Of a stretch of DNA of 64,000 nt, positions 2,736-48,626 are shown in pieces. Positions within the stretch are counted from its first letter, which is position 1. Each line of letters opens with the position of its first letter. Source of the stretch: an uncultured virus (IMG/VR IMGVR_UViG_3300028805_000105) (lineage: Duplodnaviria; Heunggongvirae; Uroviricota; Caudoviricetes); IMG/VR virus record IMGVR_UViG_3300028805_000105, one strand, 5' to 3'. The translations under genes and the position numbers were made by a program. The notes beneath the pieces are model-generated. The model worked only from the letters and a program-made list of their open reading frames with translations. It ran no database searches and had not been told where the DNA came from.

Positions 2736-3236
2736 ATGTCGCAGCAAGTGACCATAATGATAAAAGAGGCCGATGCCTTGAAGCGTTTCGAGCGCGCCAC
2801 CTTCAAGCAGGGCAGGGCATTGGAACAACCCAATGTGGCGAAGCAGGTGTATAACCTGCAGGCCGACCACGAGGAATCGGCAGACCAAGGGCTGATGCAC
2901 GACTCGTACAACCAATGGCTCGGCGAGGCCGTCAACCAAGTGAGGGAGTACCTCACGGCAGAACCCACCGTGTCGAACACGGACGAGACCACGATTGTCC
3001 TGTTGATGCCGGGCAACTGGGAACACTACGCGCCAAACGCGCCCGGACTGAGATACGCCATGCTGGAACTGATTCAGAACGGCATGTTGGCAGACTGGTA
3101 CGACGAGACGAAGCCCGATTCTGCCAAGAGCTTCAGGCAGAAGGCTGAGCTGAACAAGGCGCAGATACGCAGCATCATCTATTCACTTAAACCGCCCACC
3201 GTGACCGTGACGAGCGAGGCAGGGGAGTTTGTTTAG
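2736..3236 (+). CDS. Adaptor/ring-like protein, paralog 2
   Basis: LMPGNW...GMLADWY...P...IYSLKPP. Confidence 0.55.
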   Translation: MSQQVTIMIKEADALKRFERATFKQGRALEQPNVAKQVYNLQADHEESADQGLMHDSYNQWLGEAVNQVREYLTAEPTVSNTDETTIVLLMPGNWEHYAPNAPGLRYAMLELIQNGMLADWYDETKPDSAKSFRQKAELNKAQIRSIIYSLKPPTVTVTSEAGEFV

Positions 3237-3306
3237 TTTAGAGTTTAGAGTTTAGAGTTTAGAGTTTAGAGTTTAGAGTTTAGAGTTTAGAGTTTAGAGT
3301 TTAGAG
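3237..3306. repeat. Perfect heptamer tandem repeat (TTTAGAG)x10
   Basis: Fills the intergenic gap from the TAG at 3236 to 2 nt before the ATG at 3309. Confidence 0.97.
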
Positions 3307-3308
3307 AT

Positions 3309-3767
3309 ATGCAGACCGTTGTCATCACCATATTAAAGGACACCATAGCCACTTCGATGGAAACATTGCTGTGGAAATACGGATCATCCATCGAGAACGC
3401 GGAAAACTTCAAGCTGGTGTATAACACCAAGTCGTCGAAGGCCACCAACGCCGTGGATGCCCGCGTGATTGATGATTCATGGGAGGCGAGGACACAGGAG
3501 GCCATCGACTTCCTGAGCGACTTCGCCCCAGACGTGAGCCAAACGGCAGGCTCGAAGGTGGTAACGCTTTTGATGTCGGCCCGCTGGGGAGGCAGCCAAA
3601 CGACGCTGAAGGCCGCGATGGAGAAGTATATCCTCGACGCCATGATGCACGACTGGCTGACCGCCACGGCACCCAACGAGGCCCCGATGTACGGCAACCG
3701 CCTTGCAGAGGACGAGAAGAAGATAAGAAAGAACGTCTATTCGCTGAGAAAACCCGCAGTCTCATAA
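3309..3767 (+). CDS. Adaptor/ring-like protein, paralog 3
   Basis: LMSARW...YILDAMMHDWL...PNEAPMY...VYSLRKP. Confidence 0.55.
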   Translation: MQTVVITILKDTIATSMETLLWKYGSSIENAENFKLVYNTKSSKATNAVDARVIDDSWEARTQEAIDFLSDFAPDVSQTAGSKVVTLLMSARWGGSQTTLKAAMEKYILDAMMHDWLTATAPNEAPMYGNRLAEDEKKIRKNVYSLRKPAVS

Positions 3768-4229: not shown

Positions 4230-4738
4230 GCAACTTTTTCCGCAGACCCGTACCGATAGAGTTTGACATAACGATTGGGCGCGACGCCATCGTCGGGACT
4301 GTCGTAAGCACCTTGAACAAGATGGCAGAGGCGCGTTTCGACGGGCAGAACACCCAGTATGTGAACAACATGCAGCCTGAGATTGACTTTGAGCAGGACA
4401 GGAACCTTGTCTATGAGTATTATAACGAGGCTATCGGGAACATCACGCGGCGCATCGAGCCGTATGTAAGCGGTTGCGAGGACATCACGGAGGGTACTAT
4501 TGGCAACGTGTTCCATCTTTCGATGCCCGAGAACTGGAGAAACACCCTGCAACAGTCGCTAAAGACGAAGATGGAGAATTACATTGTGCATTACATCATT
4601 TGCCAATGGCTGGAGAAGGTGAGCGTGAGCGACACGGAATACACGACGGCCAAGGCCAACAAGTTGCTTGGGGAAATCAAGTGGACTTGCGAGCTGAGGA
4701 AGGGCGTGGTACATAGAATTTGGAACGGAACCTATTAA
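4226..4738 (+). CDS. Adaptor/ring-like protein, paralog 5
   Basis: LSMPENW...MENYIVHYIICQWL. Confidence 0.5.
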   Translation: MSNFFRRPVPIEFDITIGRDAIVGTVVSTLNKMAEARFDGQNTQYVNNMQPEIDFEQDRNLVYEYYNEAIGNITRRIEPYVSGCEDITEGTIGNVFHLSMPENWRNTLQQSLKTKMENYIVHYIICQWLEKVSVSDTEYTTAKANKLLGEIKWTCELRKGVVHRIWNGTY

Positions 4739-5354: not shown

Positions 5355-5375
5355 AAAGACATAATTTGAAGAGAT

Positions 5376-7451
5376 ATGGCTACGAAAACCAAATATATAA
5401 GGAAGTCGGCGGTGATGCCGAAGAAAGGCAACAAGCCGAAGTTTGACAGCGTTGCAGAACGGAGGAAGCAGACGGACGACACGCATCGAGACCCCGACTT
5501 GCTGCATAGGATGGAGACTGCATGGGAAAACGACCGCCCTGTGCATGAGGAAGGCGAACGTTGCCACCGTTTTGTGTATGGCGACCAATGGGGAGATTTG
5601 ACCTACTACGATGGCGAGTGGATGACCGAAAGGGCGTACCTTATCAAGCGTGGCAAGGTTCCGTTGACCAACAACGTGACACGCAGACTGATTACCGCAG
5701 TGAAGGGAAACTACCTTGGTCAGAAGTCGGAGCCGCGTTGTCTTCCGTTCAACAGCGAGAGTGCGCCGGGTGCGGAAATGCTTTCAAGAGCCTTGACCAC
5801 CAACTGGCGCAGACGCTACAACTCCATGAGTACGCAGCTTTCCAATGCCGTCGAGAACTTCCTTATCAGAGGCATTGCCGTTATGGGAGAATCGTATGAG
5901 CGCACATCGAGCGGAAGATACGACAGCAAGACCAAGCTCTACGACCCTCGTAAGGTAGCCATTGAATGCACCATGAACGACCCGTTGATGGAGGACATCA
6001 GCCTTATCGGCATCATCCATGACGTGAAACCGTTGGATTTCCTTGCCAAGTTCGGCATCCGCATCGGACCAAAAACAATGCGCGACATCAAGGAAGAGTA
6101 TGGCAACCATGCCTACGAGCACATGCGCGAGAACCAAATCGACAACAACGAGCGCAACCGCCTCGAATACCTCGACTTCTACGCCAACAACGACCCGACC
6201 CGCTGGCGTTTCTACGAGATTTGGACGAAGGAAATCAAGACGATGTGGCTTTGCTACGACCCTGCCCGACTGAACGACCCGTTCAAGGTGGAGAGCGTTG
6301 ACAAGTTCCGTCTTGACGAATACGATGGCCTTACGGTGCTGCAAGAGAACGAGCGCAGACGGAAGGAGGCAATCGAGCTTGGCATCCCGGATGATGAAGT
6401 GGTTTACATCGACTATGGACAATACGGCAAGGATGGCATGTTTGACGGAACGGGTGAGTTCATCGATACCTACTGGTACGTGAAGTTCCTCACCCCTCAT
6501 GCCACCGTCATTGATGAATATGTGTCGCCTTATGAGTGCGGTTGTCCCATCACCGTGGCCAAATATCCCTATGTGAACGGAGAAGTACATAGCTACATCG
6601 CGGATGTCATTCCCCAGCAGAAGTACATCAACCGACTTGTGACCTTGAACGACATCGCCATCCGTGCCACCGCAAAAGGTGCGTTGCTCATGGACAAGCA
6701 ATCCCTTGAGGAAAACGACGAGCAGACGCAGGAGGAGATTCGCCAGCAATGGAGCGACCCGGACGGTGTGGTGTTTTGGGACAGCTCGTTGGGAGGCCAG
6801 CCGCCAAAGCAGGTGTCGAACACCTCTACCAACGTGGGTATCGACACCGCCCTTTCGATGCAGTTGGGTTTGATGGAGGATATTTCGGGCGTTCACGGCG
6901 CGGCACAAGGCAAGGACGCCCTTTCGGGACAGTCGGGTTCGCTGTACGCCCAGCAGGCGGCCAACTCGAACACCATGCTCCGTGCCGTCTTGGAGGCTTT
7001 CAGCGAGTTCACCAAGCGCGTGGCCTATACGAAGCTCTCCATCATCAACCAGTACTGGGAGGATGGCAGACCCATCAACACCTATGGTTCGTCGTATGGC
7101 GAGGTCAGACGCTTCGACCGTCGCTTGCTTGAGGACTTGGATTATGAAGTCACCATCATCAACAGCGACGACATGGAGACCGCAGCCACGGTGAGCAACC
7201 AAGTGGCCCTGCAAATCTTCGAGAAGGGCGCGATAGATGCACAGGCATTGTTGCAGGTTGGCAACTGGCCGCAGCAGTTCAAGGAGAAGGCCCTGAAGGT
7301 GATAGCCGAGCAGAAAGCCGCCATGATGCAACAACAGGCCGACGCACAGCAGCTGGCGGCGTTGCAGCAGGGATTGCCGCAGCAGCAGGCGCAGACACTT
7401 GGCAACGGACTGATGAACGGATTGATGAACCCGATGAAACAAGCAGCGTAA
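5376..7451 (+). CDS. Portal protein (P22-like)
   Basis: 691 aa; FVYGDQW, PLTNN, IADVIPQQKYINR, EDISGV...QG...SG, Gln-rich tail. Confidence 0.88.
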   Translation: MATKTKYIRKSAVMPKKGNKPKFDSVAERRKQTDDTHRDPDLLHRMETAWENDRPVHEEGERCHRFVYGDQWGDLTYYDGEWMTERAYLIKRGKVPLTNNVTRRLITAVKGNYLGQKSEPRCLPFNSESAPGAEMLSRALTTNWRRRYNSMSTQLSNAVENFLIRGIAVMGESYERTSSGRYDSKTKLYDPRKVAIECTMNDPLMEDISLIGIIHDVKPLDFLAKFGIRIGPKTMRDIKEEYGNHAYEHMRENQIDNNERNRLEYLDFYANNDPTRWRFYEIWTKEIKTMWLCYDPARLNDPFKVESVDKFRLDEYDGLTVLQENERRRKEAIELGIPDDEVVYIDYGQYGKDGMFDGTGEFIDTYWYVKFLTPHATVIDEYVSPYECGCPITVAKYPYVNGEVHSYIADVIPQQKYINRLVTLNDIAIRATAKGALLMDKQSLEENDEQTQEEIRQQWSDPDGVVFWDSSLGGQPPKQVSNTSTNVGIDTALSMQLGLMEDISGVHGAAQGKDALSGQSGSLYAQQAANSNTMLRAVLEAFSEFTKRVAYTKLSIINQYWEDGRPINTYGSSYGEVRRFDRRLLEDLDYEVTIINSDDMETAATVSNQVALQIFEKGAIDAQALLQVGNWPQQFKEKALKVIAEQKAAMMQQQADAQQLAALQQGLPQQQAQTLGNGLMNGLMNPMKQAA

Positions 7452-36175: not shown

Positions 36176-36883
36176 TTACATTTTTCGTTCAAACTCGTTT
36201 CCCAAGGTGCTGTCGCCCTTGTAATTGTCATTGTTGGTCGGTTGGTCTTTGAGTGCGAAGAATCCCGACCAGTTGTTTGCCATAGCCTCGTCAATGATCG
36301 CCTTGGCGGTTTCAATGTTGCCGCCAGACAAGTTGCGGAGTTTTGTTTTCATCCTTTCGATTGACATTTGGCCTTTGTAGGTTTGGCCTCGTTGCTTTTT
36401 GTACTCCAGCCACACATCAAACAACACATCCCAATCGCTTTTTTCTTCTTTTTTATAAGAAGTTATTAATTTCTTTCCTTCTTCTATTATTGGTGTGTTG
36501 CTCGTGTGTTGCTCGTGTGTTGCTTGAATGTTACCTTGTGTGTTAATTGGTGTGTTGCTCTTTTTTTCTACAAGTTGGTAAGTGTCATATTTGCAGATTG
36601 TTATAATGGAATATTCGTGTGTTGTTTTCTGTGTTATTTCGTGTGTTGATTTTAGCCTTTCCAAACAAGTGCGCAATTTTTGCTTGGATAATCCAGTTTC
36701 GGCGGACAACTCATTCAAGCTGGTCTTGAACGACCCTCTCGGGATGGTTTTCCCGCGATATTTCTTGTCCGTCAAGTTGGCGTTAAGCAGCAGGTGAATC
36801 CACAGCGCGACCATATTGGGATCGTCTGCCCATTCCCATTCAAGCAGCTTGCGGTGTATTTTTATCCATCCGTTATTATCCAT
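36176..36883 (-). CDS. Replication initiator (replisome organiser)
   Basis: GWIKIHRKLLEWEW, HTH-like core, iteron-encoding linker, next to the loader. Confidence 0.82.
   Translation of the reverse strand: MDNNGWIKIHRKLLEWEWADDPNMVALWIHLLLNANLTDKKYRGKTIPRGSFKTSLNELSAETGLSKQKLRTCLERLKSTHEITQKTTHEYSIITICKYDTYQLVEKKSNTPINTQGNIQATHEQHTSNTPIIEEGKKLITSYKKEEKSDWDVLFDVWLEYKKQRGQTYKGQMSIERMKTKLRNLSGGNIETAKAIIDEAMANNWSGFFALKDQPTNNDNYKGDSTLGNEFERKM
36492..36650. repeat. Iteron-like repeats (AACACAC core), putative replication origin
   Basis: GTGTGTTGCT three times in tandem plus further GTGTGTT copies, next to an A/T-rich tract. Confidence 0.65.
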
Positions 36884-36887
36884 GTGA

Positions 36888-37340
36888 CTATCTGCAATCT
36901 TTTAGTTTGGCATTGTATTCATCCTCAAATTCAGACCAAGCGGGATCGTCGGGCGAGGGGAGCGTGATACCCAATTCCGTGGCCGCGTCTGAATGTACGC
37001 GGTTGAGAAAGTCTGTAAAGGCTTGCGTGGAAAGTGTCGAGGTGTGTCCCCCGACCCTCGTCAAAACTCCTGTGGAAAGGTCGACCACATCTCTTGGCAG
37101 GAACTTGAGGCAATAATAGTCGTGTATGTCTTGTGCGGGTTGTCCCGTTTCCGATTCAAGGCAGGCGAACCAGAGCCACATCAGGCGGTTTTGGGCAATG
37201 GAGCGTTTGCGCACGGCTTTCTTCAAAACAAGCGCGTGGCGACCGTTCATCAGCCATTTGAGGTTTCGGTCAACCCATGCGTGAAGTGCCTCCACATCGT
37301 CTATTTTGCCGTTGATTTTTGAAAATTCAATCTGTTTCAT
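36888..37340 (-). CDS. NinB/Orf-like recombination protein
   Basis: RSIAQNRLMW, TSTLST..FTDFL, GITLP. Confidence 0.75.
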   Translation of the reverse strand: MKQIEFSKINGKIDDVEALHAWVDRNLKWLMNGRHALVLKKAVRKRSIAQNRLMWLWFACLESETGQPAQDIHDYYCLKFLPRDVVDLSTGVLTRVGGHTSTLSTQAFTDFLNRVHSDAATELGITLPSPDDPAWSEFEDEYNAKLKDCR

Positions 37341-39747
37341 ACTCTTGTTTCAAACCATTGATGAACAAATCTGCCAATTCGTCGAAATACTTCTCATCCT
37401 TGAGCGCGTCATCGACGGCCCCGGTGATTTGGTTTGCCATCGAACCTTTCTTCATGATGAGGTAGTAGAGGTAACTGTCAATGGTGCCTTGCTCGCCACG
37501 GTTGCCGATGAGTATCCAAGAGTTGACAGCGTTCTTTTGTCCGTTGCGGTGGCAGCGCGATTCACATTGCGATAGATCAGCCATGGTCCATGGCAAGTTG
37601 ATGAAAAGCACATTTGATGATGCTGTGAGCGTCAGGCCGACACCAGCCGCCTTAATTGAGCAGATGATTACACGGCGTTGTCCGGCTTGGAATGCGTCGA
37701 TAGCCGCCTGTTTCTGTGCGGCGTTCTGACGGCCCGTGACGCAGACGGCATCGGGTATTTGTTCAAGCAAGGCATCAACAATGTCGTGATGCTCGGCGAA
37801 CACCACGACGGGTTCCGATGTGTCCTGAATGAAGGAAACCGCCGCCTCAACCTTGCCTTGGCCTGACAGCTTGCGCAGGTTCATGAACTTGACCAATGCT
37901 TGCATACGCATTTTCTTGCGGACTTCCTCATCAGACATGTTGCGGTATTCCTGCAACCATGTGCGCAGGTCGTTTTCGCAAAGGTCGTATTCCTCTTTGT
38001 TGGACAATTCTGTGATGACCTTGGAGCGCGTCAGGTCGGGAAGGTCTTTGAGTACCTCCTTCTTGCCGCGACGGAAGTAGCATGAATCGTGGAGCAGGGT
38101 GTTGAGTTCAGACAGATTTTTGCCGTCGCTGTAGGTGTTCACGAAATTGGAATAGCCTCCGAAGTCGTTGATGCGTCCAAGGATGCAGAGCTGCGTTGCA
38201 AGGTCCATCGTGTCGTTGACCACAGGCGTACCCGTCAGCATGTTGATGTACTCCTTGCCGTGGCAGATGCCCATGCAGAAACGGGCGGTGGCGGTGGCCG
38301 GGTTCTTGCATCGGTGGCTCTCGTCGATGATGACCGACTTGAACAGCTTGATCACGTCCTGAAAAACGATGTCTTTGAGTTTGGCACCCTTCTCGGCCTT
38401 GACCACGAAATACTTGCGGAGCGATTCGTAGTTGACGATGACCACATCATAAAGGTTCATTTGTCCGATGAAGTAAGGGAACGTTGACTTGATGGCATCG
38501 TTGAGGATGAGCGGGCGAAGGTCGGTGAAGTTCTCCACCTCTCTTTGCCAGTTGATTTTGAGCGAGGCTGGGCAGATGACGAGGCAAGGAGTGGCCTTTG
38601 CACGGGCCACGCTGACAATGGCCTGGCCTGTGTTGTGTGTCACAATGAAATCTCGCGTGATATAAAGATGGTCTGGATGATTGATATAGATACATCTTTG
38701 TAGTTCCTGATCAGTCTCTTTCTCGATATTGACTATCGACCGGATTTTCCTTGCTTGTTTGCCGTAGATGTAAATTCGATAATTGAGAAATTTTTTGCCC
38801 TCTTTTTCATACCAACTTTCACGTTGGCAGCAACGGGCGATATAACCCAATGAGCGAGCCAGTTCACAGAAATTTTGCGCGAGCAGTGGTGATGCTGTGG
38901 AATACTCCCAAACATCGGACTTGACTACATGTCCGTCTGTCATCAACAAGCCTTCCAACAATTCTTTCCTTTCGTCGATGGAAGCATATAGGTATGCTTT
39001 CGGGATAAACTTTTCTTTTGACTTGAGTCCATAGAGTCCAAGATTTGTCAATGCGAGTTTTGTTGCGCATTGTTTCCCTTGTCCATTCGAGATATGGAAT
39101 GTCATTCCGTCTGACTCAAACTCGCTCACATGATCACCGTTATCGAGAAACTTTTCTATACGTTTGCGAATGTTATCGTTCGGTTTTGTTATTGTAACGC
39201 CATGTTTTGTAAGGCAACCGTCGCCAATAATAACACCAAGGATATAGGGGTGAATTGGGAGTTTGTCCTTCAGTGGAGTATAACGTACCGACATACAAAT
39301 TGGAATAGAATATTTGTAATTCCATCTGTCTTTGTCTGGATAGCGTTTGTCGTGGACCTGACACTTATAATCCTTCATGATTTCGGATAGTTCAAGTGTC
39401 CGATAATGGTCATTACCATGACGGAAAGCATCATTGAATGTGCGTACATTCCACAGATGATTCAGTCCACAACGAACATAAGTTCCGTCTGAGAAGGTTA
39501 GACGATAAACGTCCTTCACGCCTTGCTCATAAATGTTTGTGACGGTCGCAGCCGTTCCATCGGCAGCGATCACACAATCTCCAATTTCGAGGTTGCCCAT
39601 TGGAACCCATCCGTTGGGCGTAAGAACTGGCTCTGAATACGGTTGTTCTTTCCCCAATCCCATCTCATCGCCGTTAATGCAGCGTTTCATGGAAAGGGTC
39701 TTGGCGACACCGGCTTCTTGGTAAGGATATAAAGAGTATCTTGTCAT
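37327..39747 (-). CDS. SNF2/HARP-like helicase containing an intein
   Basis: DEMGLGK/T, DESH, LTGTP, AAGVGLTL, QCESRCHRNGQ. Confidence 0.92.
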   Translation of the reverse strand: MTRYSLYPYQEAGVAKTLSMKRCINGDEMGLGKEQPYSEPVLTPNGWVPMGNLEIGDCVIAADGTAATVTNIYEQGVKDVYRLTFSDGTYVRCGLNHLWNVRTFNDAFRHGNDHYRTLELSEIMKDYKCQVHDKRYPDKDRWNYKYSIPICMSVRYTPLKDKLPIHPYILGVIIGDGCLTKHGVTITKPNDNIRKRIEKFLDNGDHVSEFESDGMTFHISNGQGKQCATKLALTNLGLYGLKSKEKFIPKAYLYASIDERKELLEGLLMTDGHVVKSDVWEYSTASPLLAQNFCELARSLGYIARCCQRESWYEKEGKKFLNYRIYIYGKQARKIRSIVNIEKETDQELQRCIYINHPDHLYITRDFIVTHNTGQAIVSVARAKATPCLVICPASLKINWQREVENFTDLRPLILNDAIKSTFPYFIGQMNLYDVVIVNYESLRKYFVVKAEKGAKLKDIVFQDVIKLFKSVIIDESHRCKNPATATARFCMGICHGKEYINMLTGTPVVNDTMDLATQLCILGRINDFGGYSNFVNTYSDGKNLSELNTLLHDSCYFRRGKKEVLKDLPDLTRSKVITELSNKEEYDLCENDLRTWLQEYRNMSDEEVRKKMRMQALVKFMNLRKLSGQGKVEAAVSFIQDTSEPVVVFAEHHDIVDALLEQIPDAVCVTGRQNAAQKQAAIDAFQAGQRRVIICSIKAAGVGLTLTASSNVLFINLPWTMADLSQCESRCHRNGQKNAVNSWILIGNRGEQGTIDSYLYYLIMKKGSMANQITGAVDDALKDEKYFDELADLFINGLKQEYETD
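38632..39648 (-). mobile_element. Class 3-type intein with LAGLIDADG homing endonuclease (339 aa)
   Basis: Inserted in Walker A: GLGK|EQP...VTHN|T; HLW, QRCIYI, LGVIIGDG, LEGLLMTDG; visibly more AT-rich. Confidence 0.92.
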
Positions 39748-41871: not shown

Positions 41872-42414
41872 TCACCATTTCTTTGAAAAGCTGGCATCCT
41901 TGTTGTTGAAGATTTGGTAAAGAGAAAACTCGTTCAATTCTACTTTGCCCTGCATTGCAAACACGCATTGCGAGTTGTGACCTTTCTCGTCTTTCTTCAG
42001 GTCGGTGTCGGAACATATCAGGATAAAAGAACGCTTTTCTTTGTCACCATCGGCCCATTTGGCTATTGAGGACAATATAGAATCTACTTCTTCGCCCATC
42101 TTGTTATGCTCCATTGAATCAAAGCGCGGCTGTTTGTTAGGATTTTCGCACTCTCCGACGATTTCCCAATCCTCGCTGAGCATGTCAGTCTGTGATGCCA
42201 ACCAAGGCACCACATTGCCCTGAGCGGTTTTCATGGCTATGTACGGGCCATATTGCACATTGCACTCCTCGTTGGCTATGCTCTTTTCAAATTCAGTTCT
42301 TGCCGTATATCGGCACGCGGGGACATAATAAAGGAACATCTTTTTTCCGTTCCAGCCCTTGCGGGTTACTTTCTTGCCTTGCTTCAAGGCTTCAATTGCT
42401 TTTCCAAAGTTCAT
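41872..42414 (-). CDS. DUF2829 (Tad2/AcrIIA7-like) protein with C-terminal extension
   Basis: MNFGKAIEALKQGKKVTRKGWNGK...PYIAMK...PWLASQTDMLSEDW. Confidence 0.85.
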   Translation of the reverse strand: MNFGKAIEALKQGKKVTRKGWNGKKMFLYYVPACRYTARTEFEKSIANEECNVQYGPYIAMKTAQGNVVPWLASQTDMLSEDWEIVGECENPNKQPRFDSMEHNKMGEEVDSILSSIAKWADGDKEKRSFILICSDTDLKKDEKGHNSQCVFAMQGKVELNEFSLYQIFNNKDASFSKKW

Positions 42415-42442: not shown

Positions 42443-43327
42443 TTAGTTGTTAAAAGGATCATCGTCAGAAGTTTCAACGGTAACGCCGTTGGTTTGCGCT
42501 TCAACTGGTTGAGGTTCGGATTGAGGCTGTGGGTCTGTGTCTTTGTCTGATTCAAACGCACCACCTGCACCGATGCTGAGTTTCGGATAGCCCTTGAAGG
42601 CGTGTTTGACCGTCTTGGATTTCAGGAAGCCAGTGTCAATGTCGGAGCAATCCTGTTGATTTCCGTAGAGAGCATTTGCCTTGCCCCAATTTGATTTGCC
42701 CGAATACTGACGAAGGCGAACCATCTCGTCAGTGTCAAGTACGAAGTAGTCAACAGTGCCGTCAGCCTTGACGATGCGGACATAACAGGCAATAATCTTG
42801 GCCCCTGCCGGGCGTGGGATGGCCTTCTCATATTCAAGGAAGGATTTACCATCGCGTTCGCCAAAACGTAGGCTGTCGCAGTCATAGACAACCTTAGGAT
42901 TGTCGACGGAACGGATTTGCCCGGCACGTTGGCGAAGTACGATTTCTCCGTAGCCAGTCACAGAAATTACAGCGTGTCGCTCATAGATGTTTGTGCTTCT
43001 CTTGGTTTTCTCGTCCACCTTTTCGCCCACCTTGACCGATTTGCATTCAAGGTAGCAGGTCGTTGAAAGTCCCTTTTCAAGCGAAAGGTTGTTGATTGCA
43101 AGGAATAAAAAGGCAAAGTAAATGGATATGCCCGAGGCTTCCTTGAGCAGCTCCTTGTACGAGCCTGATGTCAGTTCATTGAGGAAAAATCCGCGTTGCT
43201 CTTCATAAAAAGCTTCGGCGTTTTGCTCACCGAACTTTTGTGAATAGACTTGAATGAACTTTTCATGAGCAATGTCGGGTATTTCTTCGTGCCGTGCGAT
43301 TTTGATTCTATCAAAGATGTTTTCCAT
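42443..43327 (-). CDS. recT: RecT-family ssDNA annealing protein
   Basis: NLSLE..YL..TGYGE..LRQRAGQI..VVYDCD..KTVKHAFK; acidic tail. Confidence 0.8.
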   Translation of the reverse strand: MENIFDRIKIARHEEIPDIAHEKFIQVYSQKFGEQNAEAFYEEQRGFFLNELTSGSYKELLKEASGISIYFAFLFLAINNLSLEKGLSTTCYLECKSVKVGEKVDEKTKRSTNIYERHAVISVTGYGEIVLRQRAGQIRSVDNPKVVYDCDSLRFGERDGKSFLEYEKAIPRPAGAKIIACYVRIVKADGTVDYFVLDTDEMVRLRQYSGKSNWGKANALYGNQQDCSDIDTGFLKSKTVKHAFKGYPKLSIGAGGAFESDKDTDPQPQSEPQPVEAQTNGVTVETSDDDPFNN

Positions 43328-43899: not shown

Positions 43900-43928
43900 G
43901 ACTTCCCGCTGAGAGAAGGCGGGAAGTC
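43900..43928 (-). terminator. Hairpin downstream of the tRNA
   Basis: GACTTCCCGC/GCGGGAAGTC perfect 10-bp stem. Confidence 0.5.
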
Positions 43929-43955
43929 GGAAATATGAAAAAGAAAGTTCTATGG

Positions 43956-44032
43956 TGGTTGGGAAAAAGGGGATCGAACCCTTGACCTACGGCTTAGAAA
44001 ACCGTCGCTCTATCCGGCTGAGCTATTTCCCA
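43956..44032 (-). tRNA. tRNA-Arg(TCT)
   Basis: TGGGAAA/TTTCCCA acceptor, GCTC/GAGC D stem, ACGGT-TTTCTAA-GCCGT, AAGGG-TTCGATC-CCCTT, encoded ACCA. Confidence 0.92.
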
Positions 44033-44036
44033 TGAT

Positions 44037-44126
44037 ACGGAGACGGGAACAATAAACGATATTACAGATAAATAATCGAGTGAAAGGAACTTAGTCAACA
44101 AAAGTACAAACGCGCCCCGTCTCCGT
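44037..44126 (-). ncRNA. Stem/large-loop element L1
   Basis: Perfect 11-bp inverted repeat ACGGAGACGGG enclosing a 68-nt AT-rich loop; RNA status is inference. Confidence 0.45.
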
Positions 44127-44184
44127 TAGACGGCGGCACACGGACATGCGCCCATGTGCCTGAAAAAAATGAAAAAAATGTAAG

Positions 44185-44343
44185 CTATGAGAAGCTCCAA
44201 TTCTTACCCCTCAACGACGGGTATCGACTATAAACCTCCGCGACCAACTCTTCTTCGCTGAATATCCAACAGGAAAGGGTGCGCAGGCTCATGGTACATT
44301 TGAACCGTCCGTTGAGAAAAATATCAAATCTCCATGTTACCAT
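44185..44343 (-). CDS. Small hypothetical protein
   Basis: FDIFLNGRFKCTM...YPSLRGK. Confidence 0.55.
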   Translation of the reverse strand: MVTWRFDIFLNGRFKCTMSLRTLSCWIFSEEELVAEVYSRYPSLRGKNWSFS

Positions 44344-44521
44344 ATGCCTTTTCCTTTTTTGCATCGGCTTGTGATGCAATTGCGATTACTGCACAGGCGA
44401 CAACGGTAAGGATGTGCCACCATGCGCCTTTGATGATCACTCCGTAGAGTGCCACGGCTCCGACAATTCCAAAAATGTATTCTTGGACTTTGTCAAGGAT
44501 TAAGATTCCATTGTTTTTCAT
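44324..44521 (-). CDS. Small 2-TM membrane protein
   Basis: 65 aa, hydrophobic. Confidence 0.6.
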   Translation of the reverse strand: MKNNGILILDKVQEYIFGIVGAVALYGVIIKGAWWHILTVVACAVIAIASQADAKKEKAYGNMEI

Positions 44522-44555
44522 CTTATAAATTCTTATGGTTTAAGTCAATTATGAA

Positions 44556-44709
44556 GGGCGCGGCGTCAAAGCCGCGCCCAATAAGATTAAGATGCCGCGA
44601 CCGCCCTCACATAGTTACTGCTGTTCTTGCTGATGTTGTCGGAGCCGAAACTGGTAAAGCCGACGTACCATGCGATGTCACTATTATACTCCGAGGAACT
44701 CCAGTAGCC
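44556..44709 (-). repeat. DGR variable repeat VR2 plus IMH and GC hairpin
   Basis: Homologous to 27818-27968; hairpin GGGCGCGGC-TTTGAC-GCCGCGCCC. Confidence 0.9.
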
Positions 44710-45066
44710 ATCATCTGTTTTCAACTCATCGCCTCCTGCTTCTACGAGGCATTTGTTGACTTCATCTTTGTAGACCATAACAAGAAGCCATTGTTGAATG
44801 GTCGGCATCTTGTATTTCTTCATGGCATCCCTCCAGTTCATCTGCTTGCCGCCTTCCGCATCGTGAAGGTCGAGGATGAAACTTTGGTCAAGCGTTTGGA
44901 TAAGAATGCCGTCGGCGTTGCCGTTTTCGTCGTAGTGGATACTGACGGGCTTCTTTGTGCTTGTGGTGACTTCTTCGGCTGTCGGATTATCGTTCAGCCA
45001 TGCGTAGATTTGCTTCGCTTTTTCGAGGTCGAAGTTCACTTGTTTGAGGATTTCTTCTTTTTCCAT
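44587..45066 (-). CDS. Small C-type-lectin-fold (DUF1566-like) protein, second DGR target
   Basis: MNWRDA..MPT..QW...YWSSSEY...AW...YVRAVAAS. Confidence 0.85.
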   Translation of the reverse strand: MEKEEILKQVNFDLEKAKQIYAWLNDNPTAEEVTTSTKKPVSIHYDENGNADGILIQTLDQSFILDLHDAEGGKQMNWRDAMKKYKMPTIQQWLLVMVYKDEVNKCLVEAGGDELKTDDGYWSSSEYNSDIAWYVGFTSFGSDNISKNSSNYVRAVAAS

Positions 45067-45097
45067 ATCGTTAAGTTTTAGTGGATTGTCACAAAAA

Positions 45098-45160
45098 GGG
45101 CATGGAGGATGGATAATAAATCAAACATTTACGATGAGTTGCGGCATTGCCTCCATGCCC
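45098..45160 (-). ncRNA. Stem/large-loop element L2
   Basis: Perfect 11-bp inverted repeat GGGCATGGAGG enclosing 41 nt. Confidence 0.45.
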
Positions 45161-45230
45161 GTCCGCCATGTGGAGCCTCGCGGCTGCTTTTGCGGTCCAA
45201 TGCCGTGTGATTGCAAAAGTACGTTTGTGG

Positions 45231-45321
45231 TGAAGGGCTGCAACATGGGATGAAATTTGAAATCTTTCCTAAAAACAAAACTCTTGAATCTATGACAACA
45301 AAAAAGACTTGCAGCCCTTCA
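45231..45321 (-). ncRNA. Stem/large-loop element L3
   Basis: Perfect 13-bp inverted repeat TGAAGGGCTGCAA enclosing a 65-nt AT-rich loop. Confidence 0.45.
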
Positions 45322-45323
45322 AG

Positions 45324-45454
45324 TGGGCGGTCGGGGAGTCGAACCCCGCAATGGTGGTAGGTGCCGAACAGACCCGCGAGTAATCCTAAGTTTCATTGTC
45401 CGCTCGCGGTTCATCATGCACTGCTGCCTCTCCTCGTAGCAGCCTATCCCGCCC
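45324..45454 (-). ncRNA. tRNA-like RNA A (acceptor + T arm, expanded interior)
   Basis: GGGCGG/CCGCCC acceptor, CGGGG-TTCGACT-CCCCG T arm, internal stems GCTGC/GCAGC and CCGCGAG/CTCGCGG. Confidence 0.6.
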
Positions 45455-45515
45455 CAATTGCCCGCTGTACCTTCCCACGGCCGCAGACTGCGGAGGCCTT
45501 GGCGGGCGGTTTGTG

Positions 45516-45657
45516 TTTCGGTGACAGGATTCGAACCTGCAAAGCATCTGTCTTGAACTTCTTTCCGCTGAGTTTCGTTCTTGTTCGCATACCCCGTACT
45601 TGAAGAGATTTTACCAAGTTGCCGTGTTGTTTTACCAGTTGATTAAACTACACCGAA
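45516..45657 (-). ncRNA. tRNA-like RNA B (acceptor, D and T arms; anticodon/variable region replaced by 88 nt)
   Basis: TTCGGTG/CACCGAA, TA, GTTT-AATCAACTGGTA-AAAC, GCAGG-TTCGAAT-CCTGT. Confidence 0.7.
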
Positions 45658-45853
45658 ATCATAAAAATAAAAGGTGCATCTTCTCCGAGGGGGCAGCAGC
45701 CCTTGTCTCTCCGCTTTGTTGCGTTCATCACTGATGCCTTCCGTAAGCTAAGCAGGGGTTTCACCTGCTTCCATCTTCTCGACATTGCCGGGTTTCACGG
45801 CTGGGCTTGCTATGTGTTTGCGGTCAAGCCAGCTCCGCTGTATCATCATGGTG

Positions 45854-46039
45854 TCAGGCTTCCCTGACGACAGTGATCGTTCTCGTTTCCTTGTCTATCG
45901 CCGTACGGTAGGTCCTGTTCATCAGCAGGCCGACCTCGTAGGCGTAGGTGCGGATAACCGCGAAGCGTTCGATGGGGAAGGAAGCCGTCTCTCCGACTTC
46001 CATCTTCTTAATTTCGTCCTTTGTGGTTTCCTTTTCCAT
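45854..46039 (-). CDS. Cro-like small DNA-binding protein
   Basis: 61 aa, divergent from the repressor; first gene of the leftward operon. Confidence 0.6.
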   Translation of the reverse strand: MEKETTKDEIKKMEVGETASFPIERFAVIRTYAYEVGLLMNRTYRTAIDKETRTITVVREA

Positions 46040-46048
46040 GATTATTTC

Positions 46049-46091
46049 TATCTTTGCGGTTGATTGATTAAGAATTGATGCCGCAAAGGTA
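46049..46091. promoter_or_regulatory. Face-to-face -7 promoter boxes of the genetic switch
   Basis: TATCTTTGC on plus (46049) and TACCTTTGC on minus (46083-46091). Confidence 0.55.
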
Positions 46092-46174
46092 CAACTAATT
46101 TTGTTACCTGCAATAAAAAAGTTGTGAAAATCACAATAAAAAGTGAATTTAGAATAAATCTAAATAACTATATT

Positions 46175-46543
46175 ATGAAAAATGCTGTTACACAAAGAGT
46201 TATCGAGGTGTTAGAAAGTAAAAATATAACACAAAACGCGCTTGCTGACAAGTTAGGAATGTATCAGCAGACTATCAGCAAGCAATTAAGAGAAGACGGA
46301 AGTGGTGTATCACTCACAACTGTAGTTGGGATGCTTGAATTGTTTCCCGACCTATCCGCAGAATGGCTTTTGCGGGGAGAGGGGAGCATGGAGAAGGGCG
46401 CGAAGGCGTTGCAGGTGCAATTTGGAAACGTTCTAAACAACACGCTTGTGCAGACCATCGACAGCCTGAACACAACGATAGCGATGCTTAAAGAGCGTCT
46501 TCAAGCCTACGAACAGCCCAAAAAAGTGTCGGGTGCCGTGTAA
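46175..46543 (+). CDS. CI-like XRE HTH repressor
   Basis: TQNALADKLGMYQQTIS, FPDLSAEWLLRGEGSM. Confidence 0.82.
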   Translation: MKNAVTQRVIEVLESKNITQNALADKLGMYQQTISKQLREDGSGVSLTTVVGMLELFPDLSAEWLLRGEGSMEKGAKALQVQFGNVLNNTLVQTIDSLNTTIAMLKERLQAYEQPKKVSGAV

Positions 46544-47276: not shown

Positions 47277-48626
47277 ATGAAATTAGTTTATCGTCTGTCA
47301 AAGAAAGCAAGGAAAATATCGGAACACATCACCGTCTATGAAGTGATGGCGAGGTGGCACACAGGGAGCATAGACCAATACGCGAAGACGGGAGTGTTCG
47401 TGCCCGTTTCGTTCACCGACAACAACGGCAACAAGAAAGTCACTTGGGCTAAAGGCTTCGTGGTCGTCCCCAAGTTGAGTTATGCCGATGATGAGCAGGC
47501 CAAGTTGCGGAATTTGCTCATGGAGGCCAAAAACAGGCTCACAGAGATTGACAACGCTGTCGGGAGGGCCGCAGATAAGTTGATGATGGAAAAGGCCGCA
47601 CCGCCCAAGGGATGGCTTCAGAGCGTCATTGACGGATGCTTTGATGATGGCGACACGGGCGAACCAGCCGCAGAAGAGCATCATACAAGCCGCGTCCTGT
47701 TGCTTGAAGCCTACAACAACTATCTGACCAGCGACAACCTTCAACTGACAGAAGGCACATTGAAGCATTACAGGACAATCCTGTACACGCTGGAAAGGTA
47801 CGAAGCGAAGAAGAAGGTGAGGCTGTACCTTGACGACATCACGCCCCACACGCTGCACGAACTATCCAAGTTCATAAAGGATGAGCAGCCAGGCAAGCGG
47901 AGCGACAACTACATCATAACGCTGATGAGGAAGTTCCGCACCTTCATACGCTGGGCTAACGGCCTATCCAAGTCGTGGCCTATTGATCCATTGACGCATA
48001 ACAACCCGTTCGACCGCTATTCCATCGGCTCGGAGCAGTACGGGACACCTTTCTACATCACAATAGAGGAGCGCAACAAGTTGGCGGCGGCTCAACTGCC
48101 AGCGAGATTGTCCGTCCAGCGTGACATCTTCGTTTTCCAGTGCCTCATCGGTTGCAGGATAGGCGACCTTTGGGCGATGACAAAGGACAACATCATAAAC
48201 GGAGCGGTCGAATATATCCCGCGCAAGACCATAGAGGACAGGCCGCTGACCGTCCGCGTACCTCTCAATAAGCAGGCGCAGGCCATTATAGAGCGGTATA
48301 AAGACAACGGCGACCCGCGATTATTCCCATTTGTCGCGCAGCAGCAATATAATGAGGACATCAAGGAGATGCTCAAACTTGCAGGCATAACGCGCATCGT
48401 CACCATCCTTGACCCTTTGACGAGACAGGAAGTGAAGAAGCCCATAAACGAGGTGGCATCCTCTCACATGGCAAGGCGCACATTTATAGGCAATCTGTAC
48501 AAGCAGGTGAAGGACCCGAACTTGGTTGGCAAGTTGAGCGGCCATGTGGAAGGCAGCAAGGCTTTCGCGAGATACAGGGATATTGATGAGGACATGGCCA
48601 AGGAGTTGGTTTCTCTTTTGGAATAA
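47277..48626 (+). CDS. int: Tyrosine integrase
   Basis: SAM-like domain, GCRIGD, K, SSHMARRTF, SGH...FARY; TATCTTTGC at 47250 supports this start. Confidence 0.93.
   Translation: MKLVYRLSKKARKISEHITVYEVMARWHTGSIDQYAKTGVFVPVSFTDNNGNKKVTWAKGFVVVPKLSYADDEQAKLRNLLMEAKNRLTEIDNAVGRAADKLMMEKAAPPKGWLQSVIDGCFDDGDTGEPAAEEHHTSRVLLLEAYNNYLTSDNLQLTEGTLKHYRTILYTLERYEAKKKVRLYLDDITPHTLHELSKFIKDEQPGKRSDNYIITLMRKFRTFIRWANGLSKSWPIDPLTHNNPFDRYSIGSEQYGTPFYITIEERNKLAAAQLPARLSVQRDIFVFQCLIGCRIGDLWAMTKDNIINGAVEYIPRKTIEDRPLTVRVPLNKQAQAIIERYKDNGDPRLFPFVAQQQYNEDIKEMLKLAGITRIVTILDPLTRQEVKKPINEVASSHMARRTFIGNLYKQVKDPNLVGKLSGHVEGSKAFARYRDIDEDMAKELVSLLE

Follow-up and report, generated by a model that had tools for sequence, protein, structure and literature searches.

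A modular cassette of perfect stems and tRNA-shaped units, a candidate source of small RNAs in a temperate Bacteroidales phage

A temperate gut phage of Bacteroidales carries, on its early leftward (minus) strand, a cassette in which three perfect inverted repeats with large loops lie among a tRNA gene and two tRNA-shaped units. The stems, here called L1 to L3, are real and occur far beyond chance. With about as much doubt as confidence, we favor a reading in which the cassette gives rise to processed small RNAs, some of them blocking host translation starts. All coordinates refer to the window, the whole stretch analyzed, which comprises 64,000 nucleotides of a 69,241-base IMG/VR record from an uncultured virus.

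Three perfect stems among tRNA-shaped units

All three inverted repeats noted in a preliminary description of this DNA were recovered. L1 (44037–44126, minus strand) pairs 44037–44047 with 44116–44126 through 11 bp around a 68-nt loop. L2 (45098–45160) pairs 45098–45108 with 45150–45160, likewise through 11 bp, around a 41-nt loop, and with the five U directly 3′ of it occupies 45093–45160 (−). L3 (45231–45321, −) pairs 45231–45243 with 45309–45321 through 13 bp around a 65-nt loop. Their description as GC stems needs one qualification, since the L3 arms are just 54% GC. The spacing is as originally reported: L1 ends 4 nt before tRNA-Arg(UCU) (43956–44032, −), and L3 starts 2 nt past the discriminator base of tRNA-like unit A.

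Shuffling and genome comparisons set these stems apart. Among 2000 dinucleotide shuffles of 43901–46100, 62 held one such repeat and none held two or more. A wider filter (arms of at least 9 bp and at least 50% GC; loops of 30–95 nt and at most 38% GC) returned L1–L3 as the sole three matches in the whole record; for comparison, 2.0 Mb of a host-family genome contains three repeats with arms of at least 11 bp. The fold z-scores of L1–L3 range from −2.6 to −4.0, and much of the L3 loop is predicted to pair further, in part by G-U. On the transcribed (minus) strand, U makes up 50% of the L1 loop, 37% of the L2 loop and 46% of the L3 loop. The arm sequences are mutually unrelated, the only motif common to L1–L3 is a −7-like 9-mer, and no second copy of any stem was found in the record or among the scored matches in 391 genomes. 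Terminator calling scored none of the three as an intrinsic terminator; only L2, with its 41-nt loop, is followed by a U run.

The early leftward unit begins with a 61-aa ORF (45854–46039, −), called the cro-position ORF by position only. It is 82–97% identical in the related loci L007 and L008, has no Pfam or PHROG match, and is preceded by a −7 box, TACCTTTG, at 46091–46084. Boxes of the TAnnTTTG type flank the neighboring HTH repressor (46175–46543, +; profile matches), in line with the Bacteroides promoter consensus TAnnTTTG / TTTG (PMC7366714); a tyrosine integrase (47277–48626, +; Pfam) lies beyond. On the minus strand the cassette then runs through a multi-hairpin non-coding leader (45658–45853), unit B (45516–45657), a GC-rich hairpin that is candidate cargo (45460–45507; fold −24.6 kcal/mol, z −1.3, not significant alone), unit A (45324–45454), L3, a promoter-like GTTG-N19-TACTTTTG (45214–45244) overlapping the 3′ arm of L3, L2 with its five U, three ORFs, a short GC hairpin (44135–44160; z −3.85; also in L007 at 4336–4356), L1, tRNA-Arg and a terminator-like hairpin (43900–43928; fold and repeat search). 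The ORF between L2 and L1 (159 aa, 44587–45066, −) is 70% identical in L007 and has a weak Lcl_C-like match (Pfam, 21.9 bits against a cut-off of 34.9); of the two small ORFs within 44185–44521 (−), at 44324–44521 and 44185–44343, the second matches phrog_24381. Leftward of tRNA-Arg come an excisionase-like gene and a RecT-like gene (42443–43327, −; phrog_148, E 0.001). A −7-like box, TACTTTTG, also lies inside L1 at 44106–44099.

Unit A, unit B and tRNA-Arg all have an acceptor stem and a T arm. ARAGORN calls tRNA-Arg, which also matches Rfam RF00005 at 69 bits. By sequence, fold and T-arm scan, unit B has a 7-bp acceptor stem, a D arm and a T arm, with about 85 nt where an anticodon arm would stand, and unit A has a 6-bp acceptor stem, a T arm and an enlarged interior. 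Neither unit has an anticodon arm with a 7-nt loop, and neither is called a tRNA by ARAGORN or Rfam. An Rfam scan of the window to E 1 gave tRNA-Arg as its sole match, with no match to the C4 model.

Three RNA runs, from two samples, yielded contigs across L2, L3 and unit A that leave L1 uncovered; these contigs carry neither strand nor ends and possibly include DNA. The contig stops in these three runs (45824–45852, with no contig over 45853–46901) do not speak for a transcript start there, as a fourth run lacks coverage of the stretch too.

Module exchange among related phages

The cassette is modular, and comparison with close relatives indicates that modules are swapped while the leader stays. 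Relatives identified through the RecT-like gene lie in Bacteroidales genome assemblies and in one Bacteroides phage. In the closest, L007 and L008–L010, the leader is about 90% or more identical; the match of about 90% extends to about 45670, with divergence beyond, and a leader hairpin reading GCAGG/CCTGC here reads ACAGG/CCTGT in L008. The L007 cassette holds two other tRNA-shaped units and none of L1–L3, and L008 has one tRNA-shaped unit without an anticodon arm, the same genes being kept in both. The L007 hairpin runs straight into tRNA-Arg, so L1, missing from that spot, is either an insertion here or a loss in L007. No free L-type stems were found in the relatives' cassettes. At the position of L1 and tRNA-Arg, L008 (6060–6210) and L010 (1520–1860) carry an ORF containing a 24-nt tandem repeat that differs in copy number between near-identical phages.

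Among more distant relatives, the recurring element is a tRNA scaffold. The T-arm motif occurs in 33 of 41 related loci, a count that includes duplicates and ordinary tRNAs, and most of the eight misses are short contigs. In 13 loci chosen by eye, a tRNA scaffold forms the last unit before a shared ORF, and its anticodon arm consists of a short stem with an AU-rich loop. Ten distinct scaffolds (L002 2007–2112, L015 2636–2741, L018 3354–3458, L019 3616–3723, L021 3033–3139, L023 1806–1912, L024 5487–5604, L025 4019–4131, L032 805–910 and L036 1190–1290) keep GCCAUA, the complement of UAUGGC, invariant while other loop positions vary. Covariation supports the fold: all 7 acceptor pairs and 3 of the 5 T-stem pairs vary on both sides, with 94% of cells paired. 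The ten scaffolds were chosen for containing GCCAT and belong to one related family, so they count as one piece of evidence, not ten. Their loop complements are A/T-rich and then read ATG GC; of 2000 shuffles, between 1 and 299 reach their start scores (defined below). No target of the scaffold loops was found in their own records (five relatives, longest run 10 nt), among 1173 starts of related phages or among 1478 starts of genome G358, and a search of 201 Bacteroidales genomes did not find a scaffold pattern.

Further modules accompany the scaffolds. Ahead of the L018 scaffold lies a conserved non-coding module (3191–3332) that the DUF2693 RNA model matches weakly from end to end (27.6 bits against a cut-off of 81.3), and similar modules occur in L002, L015, L019, L023, L025, L032 and L036. 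Scaffolds of a second class, in which an anticodon-like stem of 8 bp closes a GGCCAU loop, appear in L015 (2197–2277), L018 (2957–3036), L023 (about 1560–1637) and L025 (3648–3728), and in L032 a scaffold of this class carries a 130-nt branched insert. At the small end are minimal tRNA-shaped units, one without an anticodon arm in L008 (5370–5428) and one with acceptor and T arm alone in L024 (about 5360–5397), which fit pure processing signals.

IMG/VR queries with the L3 stems, an anti-rpsP pattern and two neighboring proteins found no homologues of L1–L3, and phage and plasmid collections returned tRNA-Arg and chance matches only. Bacteroides phage BKO1-TP3 has RecT in common, with closely packed ORFs and no cassette before RecT.

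The stems might instead act in cis within the early transcript, as attenuators, antiterminators or internal promoters, rather than as RNAs working in trans, an explanation that we consider unlikely overall, that stands first among the alternatives and that is strongest for L1 and L2. L2 with its five U would be a large-loop terminator behind the promoter-like site at 45244–45214, and L1 a replacement promoter for tRNA-Arg. Minus-strand −7 boxes do lie at 45221 and 44106, and L007 has TACATTTG before tRNA-Arg where the window has a degenerate TACATTTT; however, the L1 box lacks a −33 element, neither L1 nor L3 has a U tail, and L007 and L008 dispense with the stems around the same genes. An 8-bp CGGCAUUG/CAAUGCCG pairing of 45142–45149 with about 45196–45203 (−) could form a switch, or a pseudoknot stacking on the L2 stem, but by our estimate such a pairing arises by chance about one time in ten, and it is not in the predicted fold. 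Cis action also leaves the start-like complement of L3 unexplained.

Loop complements and candidate host targets

The complement of the L3 loop resembles a translation start. Bacteroidetes do without Shine-Dalgarno sequences, and initiation relies on upstream adenines (PMC6847099), so a U-rich loop complementary to AUG is the form expected of a translational blocker in this phylum. We scored complements with a matrix trained on the starts of G358, of which 2.0 of 2.92 Mb (1478 starts) was analyzed. The L3 complement outscores 74% of real starts and 99.3% of all ATG contexts, and 55 of 2000 composition-keeping loop shuffles reach its score. The L2 complement exceeds 16% of real starts, with 194 of 2000 shuffles reaching it, and the complements of L1, unit A and unit B offer no usable ATG. 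Both start-like reads quoted in the preliminary description are present in the sequence, with none in L1. Its antisense proposal is thereby partly supported: the start-like reading gains support for L3, is borderline for L2, for which no target was found, and has none for L1, which has no AUG complement. Its suggestion that host defense mRNAs are silenced gained no support, as no defense-gene target was found in the sampled genomes.

The start of rpsP (S16) is the best candidate target of L3 by sequence matching, one that we put forward tentatively and regard as open to real doubt. The search set comprised 391 genomes from the family of G141, taken as Bacteroidaceae-like because ribosomal protein S1 is 76% identical to the sequence in a Prevotella record; the phage's own host is probably not among them. 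In a BLAST search with L3, matches 1, 3 and 4 fall on the rpsP start with the ATG in register (78–80% over 53–59 nt). The alignments span the leader's AAAAACAAAA, the first codons (the protein begins MATKIRLQR) and the 5′ arm of L3, and the first difference after the ATG would form a G-U pair. Eleven of the top 30 L3 loci lie at or just before a start, eight of them flagged as such in addition to the three rpsP loci. Against 38 rpsP starts L3 reaches a mean score of 44.0, compared with 24.7 ± 2.5 for 60 shuffles, and three rpsP starts score above all 1478 G358 starts.

How far this match singles out rpsP depends on the measure. By coding-side score, rpsP ranks 1 of 1478 starts in G358, where 17 of 100 shuffles match its score, and 26 of 37 rpsP orthologues outscore all other genes of G358. 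Against L3, the average rpsP leader does no better than an ordinary one, and in G358 full alignment places rpsP 27th among the 1478 starts and duplex energy places it 177th. Score extrapolation predicts about 56 equally good matches in the 391-genome search space, and rpsP was picked after that search; its match is not significant after multiple-testing correction. Two L3 searches at genus level, one over 17 genomes and one over 148, turned up no match that was better. The leaders upstream of rpsP in the host family (L161–L195) have in common a TTCAAA box and a hairpin whose loop reads ACGAG, and may represent a ribosomal leader.

Other candidates did not hold. Within the phage's own record, L1–L3 and units A and B have no self-target match above 13 nt, and their best scores against its 62 starts are reached by 81–219 of 300 shuffles; L2 matches the start at 36883 over 11 nt and no further. 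An 18/19 match of L1 in L018 lies inside a repressor gene in the non-pairing sense. L1 scores 56.5 against the dCMP deaminase start of G358 (3 of 100 shuffles), but 21.5–28 in all four other genomes with the gene, and a search of five genomes yielded two weak L1 arm matches. L2 matches in three genomes lie inside a coding region, and in five genomes 3 of 20 L2 matches fall at starts, all with E > 0.2.

Next in probability, and improbable, is that the modules are processed RNAs acting as decoys for a protein (an RNA-binding protein, a nuclease, a toxin or S1) through their U-rich single strands, the start-like complement being a by-product of composition. Loops of 37–50% U have a complement that is A-rich like any Bacteroidota leader, no target survives correction, and GCCAU also occurs in short hairpin loops of other scaffolds, in L015, L018 and L025, which fits a protein motif. 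Against this, composition-keeping shuffles seldom reach the L3 start score, and L1–L3 share no motif other than the −7-like 9-mer.

A third alternative, which we regard as very improbable, is plus-strand transcription of L3: the RNA would mimic a host leader in the sense orientation, for example that of rpsP, and sponge a regulator or ribosomes. Perfect stems can form on both strands, and a −7-like box, TACGTTTG (45220–45227, +), lies just ahead of L3, but this box has no −33 partner, all neighbors are on the minus strand, and the A-for-G difference after the ATG is tolerable, as G-U, only with a minus-strand RNA.

Least probable of all is that the repeats are DNA-level elements with no RNA function, either small invertible segments or insertion relics with terminal repeats: Bacteroidales commonly have invertible promoters bounded by inverted repeats, and L1 is an insertion relative to L007 that encloses a −7 box, but the three arms are unrelated and single-copy, no target duplication is obvious, and the RNA contigs over L2 and L3, at low depth and with L1 uncovered, contain no inversion joint.

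Proposed mechanism and relation to known systems

Under the favored reading of processed small RNAs, the early leftward transcript would carry a modular small-RNA cassette. In it, tRNA-Arg and units A and B would serve as cut sites and stabilizers; we infer RNase P cleavage at their 5′ ends and a 3′ nuclease cut after the discriminator. Cutting would release L1 ahead of tRNA-Arg and L3 after unit A as discrete RNAs, L2 could start from the promoter-like site at 45244–45214 and stop at its U run, and the perfect stems would clamp the RNA ends. The U-rich interior and 5′ arm of L3 would then pair over a host start codon and block initiation. L2 may likewise block an accessory gene outside the sampled genomes, and L1 probably has a different role. 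Both L3 and the scaffolds of the phage family are plausible candidates for antisense action on host starts.

A fuller version of this proposal, which we consider rather doubtful, would make the cassette an exchangeable battery of anti-start-codon RNAs, with tRNA-shaped units as punctuation or scaffold, that silences host mRNAs in trans without Hfq. L3 would throttle S16 and with it small-subunit assembly, and modules would be swapped like guide cassettes.

Several known systems resemble parts of this scheme. In polycistronic tRNA-guide arrays and in MALAT1 mascRNA, a tRNA-like fold is the cutting signal that releases neighboring RNAs; those systems are engineered or eukaryotic, whereas processing of the cassette is putative. 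The closest functional analogues of the cassette would be C4 of phages P1/P7 and the CI RNA of satellite P4, both of which are matured by RNase P and pair via exposed loops; C4 represses translation close to the ribosome binding site (PMC12197685, PMC5499578). The likeness would lie in RNase P processing, on the cassette's side a putative step, and in pairing loops. Unlike C4, which acts on the phage's own ant mRNA, the cassette showed no self-target or C4 model match, and unlike either RNA it holds several exchangeable modules together.

Phage RNAs that act in trans on host mRNAs are also known: lambda PreS acts on dnaN and 24B_1 on sdhB (PMC12197685). The cassette shares with PreS an origin in the early leftward region and a conserved host gene as target, the latter as a candidate and only for L3. 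PreS needs Hfq, a protein that Bacteroides lacks (PMC7366714). PreS and 24B_1 are moreover single RNAs, for which the account in PMC12197685 describes no tRNA-shaped punctuation. On the host side, GibS pairs with start codons through long seeds in Bacteroides (PMC7366714), and it and other Bacteroides sRNAs resemble the cassette's loops in being AT-rich, with long seeds over start codons in a host that makes no use of Shine-Dalgarno pairing. GibS as presented there is chromosomal with an unstructured 5′ seed, whereas L3 is a loop clamped by a perfect terminal stem. Our literature search found no description of the cassette; structured-RNA survey supplements lay outside that search and may list such motifs, and the review text of PMC12197685 that was searched contains neither Bacteroides nor tRNA.

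Few cases of phage RNAs controlling host translation are known. If true, the favored reading would show phage translation control in a phylum without Shine-Dalgarno pairing or Hfq, and would give a purpose to the phage "pseudo-tRNAs" missed by gene callers. A phage RNA directed at a ribosomal-protein start would be a new host-takeover route, and the cassette would lend itself naturally to the design of knock-down tools for Bacteroidales of the gut and rumen.

Two other features of the window deserve mention. A Tad2-like (Thoeris anti-defense) domain at 41872–42414 (−; Pfam E 4e-30) belongs to the same early operon as the cassette. Farther left, an SNF2-type helicase (37327–39747, −) is split by an intein-like homing endonuclease region with LAGLIDADG_3 and Hom_end matches.
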